Below, piece by piece: positions 47,976 to 55,015 of a stretch of DNA of 64,000 nt. Made by a program: the position numbers and the translations under genes. Every line of letters begins with the position of its first letter. Position 1 is the first letter of the stretch. Where the stretch lies: positions 103,735-167,734 of the forward strand of contig CAVROH010000012.1 in the NCBI GenBank assembly GCA_963722735.1, read 5' to 3'. Source of the DNA: an uncultured Chloroflexia bacterium. GTDB taxonomy: Bacteria; Chloroflexota; Anaerolineae; Anaerolineales; UBA11579. The notes beneath the pieces are model-generated. The model ran no database searches, was not told the origin of the DNA, and saw nothing but the letters and a program-made list of their open reading frames with translations.

Positions 47976-48963
47976 ATTTGGCGTCAGCCCAACGAGGAAC
48001 AAGGTCTCAGAGTACCGCCCGTCGAAAGTGACCGCCGCGGTGCTGGTCTATATTCCCCAGAGTGAAGGCTATTACCGTCACCGGCTGGATGTGCTGCGGC
48101 TGAACCTGGAAAGTCTGATCCAGACCTCTGCCGGGGAAGTTGATCTGCTGGTATTTGACAACGGCAGTTCACAGGAAGTCGTGGACTATTTGCAGTCCCT
48201 CCACCAGGCGGGGAAGATCGATCTCCTGATGCTTTCTTCCCGCAATCTGGGCAAGATCGGCGCGCTGCAACTGATGTTCAATGCTGCACCAGGTGACTAT
48301 ATCGCCTATTGTGATGATGATATTCTCTTCTACCCTGGCTGGCTGCCGGCCCATCTGGCTGTATTTGACGCCTTTCCCAATGTGGGGGTGGTCAGCGGGC
48401 TGCCTGTGCGGGATGCCGCCCGGCATGCGGTCAGTTCAAATCAGCAATTCATCGAGAGACGCCCCGCGGGGCTGAGTGTCAAAAATGAACGCTGGATCGA
48501 AGAGGACTGGGACCTGGACTGGGCGGAGAGCACCGGCCGCGATCTGGAGAAGCATATTGAAGTTTTCAAGGATTTTCAGGACCCGTTGTGGGAGATGTCG
48601 GGCGTGAGGGCTTTCCCGGCAGCCAATCATTTCCAGTTTGTAGCCCGCAAGGACGTGATCCTCAAAGCCCTGCCGGAGGAATGGTCGGGCAGGCTGATGG
48701 GCAAAATGGTCGAGCTTGACCAGGCAATCGATGCCCAGGGCTGCCTGCGGCTTTCAACCGCCGGGAGATATGTCCGCCATATCGGGAATGTGGTCTCGCC
48801 CAGATTGGCGGCAGATATTCAGGATCTGGGGCTGGATCTGGAAGCCGCGGAGGTGGTCCGGCGGGATAAAACCCACTGGCTGCTTAGAATTCCGCGCATG
48901 TGGCATTTTTTGGAGAGAATTTACAGCAAGCTGTTTGATATTCTTTACCAGGTGGAACGATGA
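47968..48963 (+). CDS. GT2-like glycosyltransferase
   Basis: LVFDNGSSQEVVDYL and IAYCDDDILFYPGWL (DxD). Overlaps its neighbours by 8 and 4 nt. Confidence 0.6.
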   Translation: MARFGVSPTRNKVSEYRPSKVTAAVLVYIPQSEGYYRHRLDVLRLNLESLIQTSAGEVDLLVFDNGSSQEVVDYLQSLHQAGKIDLLMLSSRNLGKIGALQLMFNAAPGDYIAYCDDDILFYPGWLPAHLAVFDAFPNVGVVSGLPVRDAARHAVSSNQQFIERRPAGLSVKNERWIEEDWDLDWAESTGRDLEKHIEVFKDFQDPLWEMSGVRAFPAANHFQFVARKDVILKALPEEWSGRLMGKMVELDQAIDAQGCLRLSTAGRYVRHIGNVVSPRLAADIQDLGLDLEAAEVVRRDKTHWLLRIPRMWHFLERIYSKLFDILYQVER

Positions 48964-49959
48964 GGAGGGATGTTTTGAGAGATCATCCAATTTTTATTTG
49001 CGGGCATCCCAAATCGGGGACCAGTCTGATGCGGAACCTGCTAGACCACCATCCCCAATTGGCAGTATATCCGGAGGAGAGCCATTTCTTTCGCAATTTC
49101 CTTCCCAGGGCAGCGGGATTGTCATTAGAGCAGATGATTGCGTTAGGTGAGGAGAAACTGCTCCATATATTTGAGTGGAACCTGGAGAATCCGCCAGATC
49201 ACCAGACCGGGTTTCTGGACCGTGATTACAGTTTCATTTCATTCGAGGAGGTCAGGCGAAAATTTGGAGAGCTGCTCAGGGCAGAAGGCATCCGCCATCC
49301 CGGGGATGTGCTTTGGGCGGCAGCCCAGACATTTTCCCAGGTGAGTGGGGGCCAGGTAGAAAAACAGGTGGGCTGGGTAGAAAAGACCCCGTCCAATGAG
49401 TATTATGCCCCTCGGATTTTTGCATGGTGGCCGGAAGCCGCGCTGTATCCATATTGTGCGTGACCCACGCGATAACTACGCTTCTTATCAGCAAAAACAG
49501 GGTTCCTGGTCAGCGGGGAAGTTCTCCGCCCACTGGAACCGGTCAACAGCCGCTGGCTGTCTGAATGAGGCGGATTATGGTGATGACCGTTATTGGTTGC
49601 TTCGCTATGAAGATCTGGTGACAGAACCGGAAAAAACGCTGGGACAAATCTGCCAATTCCTGGGGATCGAAGACCATCCTACCCTGCGGAAACCGACGCG
49701 GGTCGGAGACCTGTGGCGCGGCAATTCAATGTTTGCGGCTGAATTTCAAGGAATCAGTTCAGCAGCGGTCGGGCGATGGAAAGAGCAGCTTCCCGCTTCT
49801 CAGGCAGGTGTAGTCCAAACTGCCAGCCGGCAGTATATTAAGCGCTTTAATTACCAGGATGTAATTCCGGTAAGTTTCCGTGACCGGCTGACCGGCTGGT
49901 ATTGGCGATTGCGCGGCCAATTCTATGATTTGCGGAATGGTTTGAGAAGGAAGGCCTAA
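48960..49959 (+). CDS. PAPS-dependent sulfotransferase, frame-interrupted near 49436-49442
   Basis: 5'-PSB loop GHPKSGTS in ORF 48960..49463. 3'-PB motif IVRDPRDNYASY in ORF 49396..49959. Confidence 0.8.
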
Positions 49960-49965
49960 GTTATT

Positions 49966-52027: not shown

Positions 52028-53152
52028 ATGAAAGTCCTGTATATTGCTGGCAAATATGATCCAAGAGACCACGATTCCGGAAGCGGGGTCGATTATATGA
52101 TTTACCAGTCGTTAAAACAGAAGGGAATTGATCTGACTCTGGCTGGGCCTTTTGACAAACCTTGGACTCTTATTGAAGAGCTATATTTTCTGGTGCACAC
52201 GATCATATCTTCAAAAGGCCCGGTCAAATATCCCCGCTCATACCTCAAGGATGCATCCCGGCAAGTGGATAGGGCGATTAGAGATGTGGACCCAGATGTC
52301 ATTTTTACCAAGCACGCAGCTTCTCTGTCCTATTGCCCGATAGAAAAACCATTGGTATACCTGATCGATTCCACATTGGTTGGCTATCGTTCTCAATGGG
52401 GGAATTTCACCGATTCAGCCTATAAGAGTATGCTGGCCTGGGAAACCCGTGTGGTTCAGGCCAGCCGCGAGGTTATTACCAATAGTGATTGGTCAGCCTC
52501 AATTTTGGCTGATGACTATCATGTAGATAAGAGCAGGATCACTGTATATGCAAATCCTTCATCTATTCCTCAAGATGTGGTCCCTGAAAATCTTGAGCTT
52601 GATACCAAGGATTTTGATCCAATTAAGTTGCTTCTGGTTGGACGAGCTTATCGCCGCAAAGGTATCGATATTGCCATAGAAACCGTACAGCAATTGAATG
52701 CCAGCGGGCACCCAGCCGAATTGAGAATTGTGGGTATGGATGGCGAAGATAAGCCCCATGTACGCTATATGGGGTATTACAAGAAAACGATTCGGGAAGA
52801 GTTGATAGGATATGTGGAGAACTATTCTTGGGCCAATTTCCTAATTCACCCGGCAAGATTTGAAGCCGCAGGAATTGTCCCTGGTGAAGCCGCTGCCTTT
52901 GGGGTGCCTACCATCACGAATAATGCTGGAGGTCTGGGGACGACAGTAAAAGATGGTGTCTCAGGAATCGTGCTGCCGATTGGCAGTTCTGCTGATTTGT
53001 ATGTCGAAGCCATTCTTCGTTTGGTCAATAATCCGGAAGATTACATAAAACTTTGTATATCTTCCCGAAATAGATACGAGAGCGAATTGAATTGGGACCA
53101 TGCAAGCGATGTGATTATTGATGCCCTGAAACGGGCTGCGAGGGTTAGTTAG
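52028..53152 (+). CDS. GT4 (GT-B) glycosyltransferase, low-GC
   Basis: Internal ATG 52028 (MKVLYIAGKYDPRDHDSGSG...). ...FEAAGIVPGEAAAFGVPTITNNAGG. Visibly AT-richer than its flanks. Confidence 0.8.
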   Translation: MKVLYIAGKYDPRDHDSGSGVDYMIYQSLKQKGIDLTLAGPFDKPWTLIEELYFLVHTIISSKGPVKYPRSYLKDASRQVDRAIRDVDPDVIFTKHAASLSYCPIEKPLVYLIDSTLVGYRSQWGNFTDSAYKSMLAWETRVVQASREVITNSDWSASILADDYHVDKSRITVYANPSSIPQDVVPENLELDTKDFDPIKLLLVGRAYRRKGIDIAIETVQQLNASGHPAELRIVGMDGEDKPHVRYMGYYKKTIREELIGYVENYSWANFLIHPARFEAAGIVPGEAAAFGVPTITNNAGGLGTTVKDGVSGIVLPIGSSADLYVEAILRLVNNPEDYIKLCISSRNRYESELNWDHASDVIIDALKRAARVS

Positions 53153-53285
53153 CGGTGAATGAGTCATTTAAACAAAATGTCACTTCGTGGTATCATGTGG
53201 GGCTGGGGTGGCCTAGCCACCCAGCTAAATCCATGAATAACTGCGTGAACGCAAGTTTGAGCAGAAAAATAAAAGGAGTATGTTA

Positions 53286-55015
53286 ATGACATCAGAATTA
53301 AAGAAAGACGTATTGATCACTCCCTATGGTGGGAAACTGGTCAATCTGGTAGTGGAAGGCCAGGAGCGGGATGATTTGCTCAAAGAAGCTTCCAAATTAC
53401 CCTATATCCAGGTTTCCGAGCGTGTGCTGAACGATCTGGAACTGCTGGCGGTCGGCGGCTTTTCGCCCCTGGACCGCTTCATGGGTGAGGCAGATTACCG
53501 CAGTGTGATGAAGGATATGCGCCTGGCAGACGGCACCCTCTTCCCCCTGCCGATCACGCTGCCGGTGGATATGGATGATATCCCGGAAGGCGCCAAGAAG
53601 ATCGTGCTGCGCGATTCACGCAACAATGTGATCGCAGTCATGAAGATCGAAGAGGCCTACAAATGGGACTGGAAAGAAGAAGCCAGCAAGGTGCTGGGCA
53701 GCACAGACCCGCGTCACCCGCTGGTCGCCGAAATGGTGCGCTGGGGCGACACCTATATCTCCGGTGAGCTGAAGGTCGTCAATCTGCCTTCTTACAACGA
53801 TTTTGTGGAAATGCGCCGCACACCGGCTGAAGTTCGCGAGACCCTGGGAGAGCTGGGCCACAAGAATGTGGTGGCTTTCCAGACCCGCAACCCGATGCAC
53901 CGCGTCCATGAAGAACTGACCAAGCGGGCTGCCGAGAAGATCGGTGGCGCTTTGCTGATCCACCCGGTGGTTGGCCTGACCAAACCCGGCGACGTGGACC
54001 ACTACACCCGCTGCCGTGTGTACAAAGCCCTGTACGAGCAATTACTACGACCAGAGCAAGACTGTGTTGAGCCTGCTGCCGCTGGCGATGCGCATGGCCG
54101 GCCCGCGTGAAGCTGTGCTGCATGCCATCATCCGCCGCAACTACGGCGCCAACCACTTCATCGTCGGCCGCGACCACGCCGGCCCCGGTGTGGATGGCGA
54201 AGGCAAACCTTTCTATGGCCCCTACGATGCCCAGGAACTGCTCTCCAAGCACGAAGAGGAAATCGGCGTCAAGATGGTGCCCTTCCAAGTTGATGGTCTA
54301 CCTGGCCGACGAGGAAGTATACGAAGAAGCAGACAAAGTGCCGGAAGGCGCCAAAGTCAGGACGATCTCCGGTACCCAGGTGCGCGATGACTACCTGGCC
54401 AAGGGCAAGCTGCTCCCCGAGTGGTTCACCCGCAAAGAGACTGCCGAGATCCTGATGGAAGTCAATCCCCCGCAGCACCGCCGCGGCTTCTGCCTGTGGT
54501 TCACCGGTCTGAGCGGCTCGGGTAAATCGACCATCGCTGAGGCGGTCACCCCGATGCTGCTGGAGCGCGGCCGCCAATTGACCGTGCTGGACGGCGATGT
54601 CGTCCGCACCCACCTCTCCAAGGGGTTGGGGTTCAGCAAGGAAGACCGCGACACCAATATCCTGCGGATCGGTTACGTGGCCTCCGAGATCGCCCGCCAC
54701 AACGGCACGGTGATCTGCGCCGCCATCAGCCCCTACAGCCAGACCCGTAACGAGGTCAAAGGGATGATCGGCCAAGATCGCTTCATTGAGGTCTACGTGG
54801 ATACTCCCCTGGAAGTCTGCGAACAGCGTGACATCAAGGGCCTGTACGCCAAAGCCCGGGCCGGCGAGATCAAGGGCTTCACCGGGATCGATGATCCCTA
54901 CGAAGCGCCGCGTGACCCGGAAGTCCGCATCGACACCGTCGCCCGGACGCCTGAGGAATGTGCCTTCCAGATCATTGAGTATCTGGAGGAAAGAGGGTTC
55001 CTGCACAAACATTAG
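53286..55015 (+). CDS. bifunctional sulfate adenylyltransferase / adenylylsulfate kinase (PAPS synthase), two frame breaks (about 54035-54042 and about 54284-54292)
   Basis: [44 protein letters not shown] and the APS-kinase P-loop [11 protein letters not shown]. Three ORF-track pieces (53280, 54016, 54107) join. ATG 53286 sits 6 nt after AAGGAG. Confidence 0.9.

Follow-up and report, generated by a model that had tools for sequence, protein, structure and literature searches.

The window analyzed here, a 64,000-nt stretch of an Anaerolineales genome (GCA_963722735.1, contig CAVROH010000012.1, positions 103,735-167,734, forward strand; all coordinates given below are window positions), probably carries a functional sulfation module embedded in a glycan locus, in which the interrupted reading frames would be assembly errors. 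The module comprises two predicted 3'-phosphoadenosine 5'-phosphosulfate (PAPS)-dependent sulfotransferases, ST1 (48960-49959, 332 residues after repair) and ST2 (49966-51000, 344 residues, intact), and a bifunctional ATP sulfurylase/adenosine 5'-phosphosulfate (APS) kinase, Sat-CysC (53286-55015, 575 residues after repair). A Gfo/Idh/MocA NAD(P)-dependent sugar oxidoreductase (51004-52008) and a family 4 glycosyltransferase (GT4, 52028-53152), both recognized by Pfam, were located between ST2 and Sat-CysC, and the distance from the end of ST2 to the start of Sat-CysC was 2.28 kb. All five genes were on the plus strand, in the order that an earlier reading made from the sequence alone (the sequence-only reading) had described. 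They were part of a tight co-directional array at 47.9-58 kb on this strand, which ran from a family 2 glycosyltransferase (GT2) through ST1, ST2, Gfo/Idh/MocA, GT4, Sat-CysC, a short-chain dehydrogenase/reductase (SDR), and a CMP synthetase/phosphatase to a NeuB-type synthase (NeuB2). The GT2 stop codon overlapped the ST1 start codon (ATGA), and the successive intergenic gaps in the block were -4, 6, 3, 19, 133 (127 nt to the first Sat-CysC ATG at 53280), 60, and about 20 nt. The sulfation block was inside a co-directional cluster of ~35 kb (roughly 29.5-64 kb), in which the Wzm/Wzt exporter genes, GT2, GT4, ST1, ST2, and Sat-CysC all occupied the plus strand at 38.3-55.0 kb.

Both sulfotransferases were recognized by the Pfam models Sulfotransfer_3 (PF13469, gathering cut-off 27 bits) and Sulfotransfer_1 (PF00685, 22 bits). 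ST2 scored 83.6 and 57.6 bits against the two models, respectively. ST1 was present in the assembly as two open reading frames (ORFs, 48960-49463 and 49396-49959), each of which corresponded to one half of Sulfotransfer_3 (50.8 and 50.7 bits); removal of a single base generated one protein that scored 116.6 bits over positions 1-214 of the 216 of the profile and 62.4 bits against Sulfotransfer_1. The PAPS loop and 3'-phosphate motif claimed earlier for each enzyme were found in both proteins, namely PKSGTS (residue 17) and RDPRD (residue 167) in ST1, and ARSGTT (residue 55) and RDGRD (residue 169) in ST2. An alignment of 34 ST2 homologues revealed that residues R56, S57, G58, T59, T60, R169, D170, G171, R172, D173, and S177 were invariant. 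ST1 and ST2 shared 23% identity (E 8e-11), consistent with their earlier description as divergent. The AlphaFold2 model of ST2 showed a sulfotransferase fold (mean predicted local distance difference test score 88.2, predicted template modeling score 0.85), and a comparison with the PDB gave 123 matches at E<=0.001, of which all 50 listed were sulfotransferases or sulfotransferase-fold enzymes. Exact copies of ST2 were present in four assemblies, and its homologues formed at least 120 clusters at 55-90% identity, every named one of which belonged to Anaerolineales or Chloroflexota.

After repair, Sat-CysC matched the NCBIfam equivalog model NF004040 with 855.8 bits (cut-off 669) over positions 4-571 of the 572 of the profile, and its two domain models were also satisfied (sopT 474.9 bits, cut-off 322.95; apsK 226.1 bits, cut-off 138.7). 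PUA_2, ATP-sulfurylase, and APS_kinase domains were recognized, and the motifs [18 protein letters not shown] and GLSGSGKST were found. An alignment with five intact homologues showed that QTRNPxHRxH, GRDHAG, the P-loop GLSGSGKST, and LDGD were all invariant, and that the repaired protein aligned to the intact copies (93-94% identity) without internal gaps. The proposed Sat-CysC fusion was borne out for the repaired protein, in both domains, their motifs, and the equivalog assignment. When the 93%-identical homologue P0001 was used as the query, the closest solved structure was the Aquifex Sat/APS kinase 2GKS (E 1e-234, residues 37-572). Two candidate start codons were present, at 53280 and 53286; the homologues began at the second, which is the likely start. 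The maximum 19-residue hydropathy of ST1, ST2, and Sat-CysC was 0.6-1.0 and no transmembrane segment was predicted in any of them; since they have no hydrophobic segment, all three would be soluble and cytoplasmic.

The arrangement of the block was examined in related loci. One related contig, L001, came from an independent assembly and was 96.8% identical to the window across 39973-60999. A set anchored on Sat-CysC at 94% to 70% identity consisted of one ENA metagenome contig, one NCBI metagenome-assembled genome (MAG), seven GTDB species representatives, and three more distant contigs, and a metagenome search anchored on ST2 used the best 80 of 552 confirmed hits (49-64% identity). The locus flanks were 10 kb, and in relatives beyond the close ones they stopped just before the expected position of Wzt. 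The order sulfotransferase, Gfo/Idh/MocA, a variable slot, Sat-CysC, SDR, CMP synthetase fused to a haloacid dehalogenase (HAD)-type phosphatase, and NeuB was found in L001, L003-L006, L008, L009, and L011-L016. Wherever the flanks were present, Sat-CysC stood between the Gfo/Idh/MocA gene on its 5' side and the SDR, CMP synthetase, and NeuB genes on its 3' side, from 94% down to 70% identity, and a sulfotransferase ORF lay directly 5' of the Gfo/Idh/MocA gene in every Sat-CysC-anchored locus that covered the region, except L010. In the ST2-anchored loci, Sat-CysC was found downstream of the ST2-family gene and on the same strand in 14 of 14 loci with at least 7 kb of downstream sequence, in 16 of 18 with at least 5 kb, and in 21 of 25 with at least 3 kb. 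Because the arrangement recurred in every related locus examined, it is not a chance juxtaposition, and the retained position of Sat-CysC together with its complete linkage to ST2 in the longest loci upholds the idea of a dedicated sulfation block within the glycan cluster. The comparison that the sequence-only reading had called for, of PAPS synthase, sulfotransferase, and Wzm/Wzt genes side by side, held for Sat-CysC with the ST2-type genes; Wzm/Wzt lay beyond the reach of the flanks, and in L015 the genes upstream of the block differed. All named homologues of Sat-CysC and ST2 came from Anaerolineales, Anaerolineae, or Chloroflexota MAGs, as did all but one of those of ST1.

Two parts of the block varied among the relatives. 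ST1-type genes were present in the window, L001, and L003-L006 only, and the sulfotransferase of L008 belonged to yet another, third type, so that sulfation seems to vary from strain to strain; judged by this distribution, ST2 is the conserved type of the locus and ST1 an accessory type of some relatives. Between the Gfo/Idh/MocA gene and Sat-CysC, the slot contained GT4 in the window and a methyltransferase in L003; L016 had two membrane proteins there, encoded on the minus strand, and L014 a Na/Pi-cotransporter-like protein with a Usp protein. The slot was otherwise empty. The true start of GT4 was the ATG at 52028 with GGAG upstream. Its GC content was 45.9%, compared with 57.2% for the window, and GT4 together with the following spacer (52028-53285) was at 45-46%. 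The slot appears to be a hot spot, either of glycan variation between strains or of horizontal insertion, and the transporter in L014 could be an importer of sulfate or another anion.

In the mechanism that we propose, the Sat domain would condense sulfate and ATP to APS in the cytoplasm, and the fused CysC domain would phosphorylate APS to PAPS. The soluble ST1 and ST2 would then transfer sulfate from PAPS to hydroxyl (or amino) groups on either the glycan or its activated precursors, ST2 performing the conserved transferase step and ST1 an accessory step in some strains only. The sequence-only reading had proposed two different acceptor positions for the two enzymes, which is plausible. The glycan would be built at the cytoplasmic face by GT2 and GT4, with sugars from two nonulosonic-acid pathways and two transferases similar to Capsule_synth and BFO_1060 proteins, and the finished sulfated polymer would be exported by Wzm/Wzt. 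ABC-transporter-dependent pathways complete the polymer in the cytoplasm, and sulfation before export by Wzm/Wzt fits this topology. We infer the glycan as the acceptor, the number and positions of the sulfates, and export after sulfation from this arrangement, and the predicted product is a sulfated surface glycan containing nonulosonic acid.

Several findings weigh against this interpretation. Three loci, L053, L050, and L090, ran from the sulfotransferase through Gfo/Idh/MocA to the CMP synthetase with no Sat-CysC between them, and these few ST2 loci imply that other sources can supply PAPS as well. In the annotated parts of the window, neither a PAP phosphatase (CysQ) nor a sulfate permease was seen. 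The best PDB matches of ST2 were tyrosylprotein sulfotransferases (TPSTs), at a TM-score of about 0.5 and 18-20% identity, and the acceptor class is not fixed by homology because the two sulfotransferases lack a characterized close relative. In the literature searched, no Chloroflexota glycan had been shown chemically to contain sulfate, and no locus for a sulfated or nonulosonic glycan had been described for the phylum. Finally, one of the frame breaks in Sat-CysC, a +1 shift at about 54289, was common to the window and L001, which are two separate assemblies.

The first of these findings bears on whether Sat-CysC is dedicated to the cluster. Rather than the locus-private PAPS supply of the sequence-only reading, it may be a housekeeping sulfate-activation enzyme, possibly the only copy in the genome, which feeds cysteine synthesis through PAPS reductase, while the sulfotransferases draw on the general PAPS pool; sulfate need not then be a major or stoichiometric component of the glycan, so that this alternative overlaps with the proposed module rather than excluding it. 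The Sat-CysC family was very large in Anaerolineales, with at least 8000 matches at E<=1e-50, as would be expected of a core gene, and the ST2 loci without an adjacent Sat-CysC are in line with a shared pool. However, in every sampled genome locus the gene was found amid sugar-modifying genes and never beside cysH, sir, or a cys transporter, and this position survived down to 70% identity. A fused APS kinase is, in addition, required for PAPS alone, as follows from the established pathway. A purely housekeeping role is considered unlikely on this evidence.

A second alternative concerns the acceptor, which may be the second nonulosonic acid or its precursor, or else a protein tyrosine or a lipid (as for TPST/RaxST-like or Stf-like enzymes), instead of the polymer backbone. 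Where Sat-CysC and the SDR were missing (L053, L050, and L090), ST2 and Gfo/Idh/MocA stayed beside the CMP synthetase/HAD phosphatase and NeuB2 genes, and both the best sequence match and the best fold match of ST2 were TPSTs. TPST1/2 share with ST2 the 5'-phosphosulfate-binding loop (GxxRSGTTL) and the 3'-phosphate-binding region. Nevertheless, the likeness was weak, with E 1.7e-7 by sequence and TM-scores of 0.48-0.53 at a root-mean-square deviation of 7-8 Å. Where TPST2 has its “GEE” motif, which may hold the catalytic glutamate, the HMMER alignment showed “DYQ” in ST2. The adjacency to NeuB2 may merely mirror the overall order of the cluster, and the sulfotransferases had no adjoining gene for a precursor peptide or lipid synthesis; their neighbors in all loci were GT2/GT4 and sugar oxidoreductases. 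Assignment of the acceptor by homology was attempted with a PDB sequence search, NCBIfam, and Foldseek and was abandoned, as only distant likeness to TPST, the CurM sulfotransferase domain, and NoeE was obtained. The nearest solved sulfotransferases were TPSTs and polyketide sulfotransferase domains, at 13-20% identity and a TM-score of about 0.5, and the scores against the NoeE equivalog NF052394 (21.6 bits for ST1 and 35.8 bits for ST2) were far from its cut-off of 500. An acceptor other than the backbone has a small chance in our estimate, and sulfation of the glycan itself is preferred.

One form of this alternative deserves separate mention. Since ST2 and Gfo/Idh/MocA adjoined the second ulosonic-acid genes even without Sat-CysC (L050, L053, and L090), the run of ST2, Gfo/Idh/MocA, Sat-CysC, SDR, CMP synthetase/phosphatase, and NeuB2 could be a pathway to a sulfated ulosonic acid, in a cluster found throughout the order Anaerolineales whose glycan carries sulfate on, or directly beside, a nonulosonic acid. 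This is a rather doubtful proposal. If true, the product would be the first bacterial sulfated sialic-acid-like sugar, and the locus would provide a genetic source for the combined nonulosonic acid and sulfate signal in the extracellular polymeric substances (EPS) of granular sludge (PMC10483923).

The remaining question is whether the frame breaks are real. In ST1, the break was caused by one extra C at 49438, which was absent from L001; the repaired protein was 100% identical to the intact 332-residue gene of L001 and to cluster P0246, and a contig from an independent sequencing run carried an intact 332-residue sulfotransferase ORF directly 5' of an exact ST2 copy. Sat-CysC was distributed over three frames in the assembly. 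The sequence-only reading had noted that its frame was broken, which was correct, but there were two breaks rather than one, located at 54039 and at about 54289. The first of these, again an extra C, was absent from L001. At 54283-54292, the window read “TTCCAAG” where intact relatives read “TTCCAG”, and the same extra base was present in L001 (about 14320-14330 of that contig). No exact copies of the Sat-CysC fragments of the window were found in the sequence collection searched for a cleaner version from the same strain, and the 167-residue fragment of ST1 had no gene record. Between the window and L001, the dN/dS ratio downstream of the shared break was 0.094 (37 synonymous and 13 nonsynonymous differences), and that of the whole gene was 0.098. 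The gene is thus under strong purifying selection, and the kinase domain was not drifting, as an ancestral inactivating mutation would predict, and the low value is conservative because sequencing noise can only inflate it. After repair, neither in-frame stops nor aberrant residues remained in the products.

The assembly itself was noisy. Gene calls on the window contig can be expected to be fragmented throughout owing to indels, and a comparison with L001 revealed 94 single-base indels in 21 kb, mostly at different sites in the two assemblies. Comparison with intact relatives located at least 12 frame breaks in 42-64 kb, where over half of the genes were hit, including PseB, a 298-residue protein, ST1, Sat-CysC, NeuB2, a 543-residue protein, and an acetyltransferase. 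Outside the cluster, the N-terminal part of the housekeeping gene Peptidase_M19 (2824-3991) was missing in frame, which is probably a further break. Because the assembly is indel-noisy, intact copies exist elsewhere, dN/dS is low, and the repaired proteins align without gaps, all three breaks were read as assembly artefacts, with high confidence for 49438 and 54039 and somewhat less, though still strong, confidence for the shared site, where the extra base was probably introduced by a systematic error of base calling or consensus building in that sequence context. Genuine, inactivating breaks in ST1 and the PAPS synthase, which the sequence-only reading had named as what would overturn it, are therefore very unlikely. 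The view that ST1 and Sat-CysC are pseudogenes in a block decaying in this strain has in its favor the three breaks as assembled and the one shared with L001, but it was rejected as highly improbable on the strength of the assembly comparison, the independent intact copies of identical sequence, and the dN/dS ratio.

Around the sulfation module, the cluster contained a GDP-mannose dehydratase, a GT2 glycosyltransferase, a PMT_2-like membrane protein of the GT-C type, and an AMP-binding enzyme. The predicted exporter of the glycan consisted of a Wzm-type ABC-2 permease (38339-39196, plus strand; Pfam ABC2_membrane, 82.2 bits) and a Wzt-type ATPase with a C-terminal Wzt_C-like domain (39206-40479, plus strand; ABC_tran, 73.9 bits). 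The latter was encoded in two frames with a break near 40062-40080, and an indel relative to L001 was present at 40062. Its Wzt_C score in the window was 26.7 bits, below the cut-off of 30.4, and the L001 copy carried a listed Wzt_C match. In O-antigen systems, the Wzt_C domain recognizes a chain-terminating cap; the cap read by the domain here could be a methyl, sulfate, or ulosonic-acid residue. The GT2 gene at the head of the sulfation block (47968-48963, plus strand; Glycos_transf_2, 61.4 bits) was kept 5' of the sulfotransferases in the relatives. The Gfo/Idh/MocA gene, which always followed a sulfotransferase, had sub-threshold NCBIfam matches to inositol 2-dehydrogenase and UDP-GlcNAc 3-dehydrogenase.

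Two sets of nonulosonic-acid genes flanked the module. The first route (42119-47075) contained a PseB-type inverting 4,6-dehydratase, an RmlD-like reductase, NeuB1, and a CMP synthetase, and the intact L001 copy of the dehydratase reached the PseB equivalog. No aminotransferase or N-acetyltransferase was observed between the genes of this route, which hints that its product is a 9-deoxy nonulosonic acid with a hydroxyl in place of the 7-amino group of pseudaminic acid. The second route consisted of the SDR, the CMP synthetase/phosphatase, and NeuB2. The SDR oxidoreductase (55076-55900, plus strand; adh_short_C2, 171.8 bits) always followed Sat-CysC. The CMP-ulosonic acid synthetase fused to a KdsC-like HAD phosphatase (about 55921-57150 by tblastn, plus strand; CTP_transf_3 and Hydrolase_3) was frame-noisy, and its intact L003 copy gave sub-threshold scores for PseF (159.7 bits, cut-off 205.7) and KdsC (116.8 bits, cut-off 208). 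NeuB2, the second nonulosonic-acid synthase (about 57185-58065, plus strand), was located by tblastn with the intact L003 NeuB (Pfam NeuB, 259 bits) and had at least two frame breaks. Two paralogues of ~530-550 residues, about 22% identical to each other, were also observed, one just 5' of the first ulosonic-acid block (40476-42062, 528 residues) and the other just 3' of the second (about 58143-59720, ~543 residues). They showed weak similarity to Capsule_synth (KpsS/KpsC-like), Epimerase_2, and BFO_1060-family glycosyltransferases and may represent an undescribed family of ulosonic-acid transferases.

The tail of the cluster (59728-64000) encoded a methyltransferase, an acyl carrier protein (ACP) of 80 residues, a GNAT protein, an Antibiotic_NAT-family acetyltransferase, a DUF4910/DUF2172 protein, and a class-II aminoacyl-tRNA synthetase-like protein that resembled amino acid-[ACP] ligases in a sub-threshold NCBIfam match. 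This tail, which the relatives retain, suggests that the glycan is decorated with aminoacyl or acyl groups. Three large proteins flanked or lay within the cluster, at 23172-24938 (minus strand), 30519-32504 (plus strand), and 35186-36754 (plus strand); two of them (588 and 522 residues) showed weak PMT/PMT_2 (GT-C) similarity, and the third (661 residues) matched no family. The two PMT-like proteins may transfer the glycan, once exported, to its final acceptor. The genes observed outside the cluster, with housekeeping or signaling roles, encoded a GAF-GGDEF diguanylate cyclase (5107-6717, minus strand), a threonyl-tRNA synthetase (18679-20496, minus strand), and an MscS channel (27876-28709, plus strand). 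Neither cysH nor sir was seen in the annotated parts of the window. Promoter and terminator scans of the window stayed at background level (9 found against 6.2 expected, and 12 against 9.7), and an Rfam scan of the window gave no match.

Sulfated glycans give biofilms charge, hydration, and the ability to bind metals and proteins, and the bacterial genetics of their synthesis is known for a handful of systems. Sludges, soils, and sediments harbor abundant Anaerolineales, which are filamentous and for the most part uncultured. In a survey of granular sludge, high-molecular-weight EPS contained both sulfate and nonulosonic acids, and sulfotransferase genes were not found there with rhizobial queries (PMC10483923). 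The locus described here could plausibly be the source of such sulfated, nonulosonic EPS. Conserved and easy to recognize, it offers a testable candidate source of the polymer, a marker for metagenome mining, and soluble enzymes that may be expressed for glycan sulfation.

The same genetic logic is known from several other systems. The bacterial tyrosine sulfotransferase RaxST of Xanthomonas depends on the dedicated PAPS genes raxPQ. In the present locus, the neighbors of the sulfotransferases are sugar enzymes rather than genes for a peptide substrate or a secretion system. In rhizobia, NodPQ together with NodH/NoeE, LpsS, and KpsS is responsible for the sulfation of Nod factors, lipopolysaccharide (LPS), and the K-antigen. 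The nodPQ genes are mentioned in PMC4053727. As in the present locus, sulfate-activation genes are linked in rhizobia to specific sulfotransferases for a secreted or surface glycoconjugate, and the rhizobial copies are extra, dedicated ones. The rhizobial systems differ in their CysDN/CysC-type activation and their lipo-chitooligosaccharide or LPS acceptors, and ST1 and ST2 fall outside the NoeE family. The Aquifex aeolicus enzyme of structure 2GKS has the same domain order as Sat-CysC (PUA-like, ATP sulfurylase, APS kinase), for which the activity is predicted; the genomic context, a glycan cluster, differs. The synechan (xss) cluster of Synechocystis PCC 6803 is reportedly of a cyanobacterial Wzx/Wzy type and plasmid-borne, and to our knowledge no PAPS synthase has been described inside it. 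It directs an experimentally supported sulfated exopolysaccharide with sulfotransferases of its own (PMC8205485). The synechan cluster is without nonulosonic-acid genes, in contrast to the two routes found here.

The closest parallels are Vibrio sp. KMM 8419 and Cobetia marina KMM 1449, in which PAPS genes and sulfotransferases within the cluster accompany solved structures of sulfated capsular polysaccharides and have been termed a hallmark of them (PMC11641403, PMC11766843). Sulfated exopolymers have also been reported from Pontiella, and Actinoplanes is a putative case, so that the rarity of sulfated surface glycans asserted in the sequence-only reading was overstated. The present locus resembles those of Vibrio and Cobetia in combining PAPS genes, sulfotransferases, and glycosyltransferases in an ABC-transporter-dependent polysaccharide cluster. 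Those species are Gammaproteobacteria with KpsMTED export, whereas the present locus belongs to Chloroflexota and has Wzm/Wzt; they use extra copies of cysD/cysN(-cysC), in Cobetia also with cysQ and a sulfate permease, whereas a single Aquifex-type Sat-CysC fusion is found here. Their polymers are based on Rha, Glc, and Man, with sulfate proven by nuclear magnetic resonance, whereas the polymer here is predicted from genes, and its locus has two nonulosonic-acid pathways and sulfotransferases of unrelated subfamilies. The principle is thus already established in Vibrio, Cobetia, and rhizobia and is not a new one; what differs here is the phylum, the single-polypeptide Aquifex-type PAPS synthase, the two uncharacterized sulfotransferase subfamilies, and the two nonulosonic-acid pathways.

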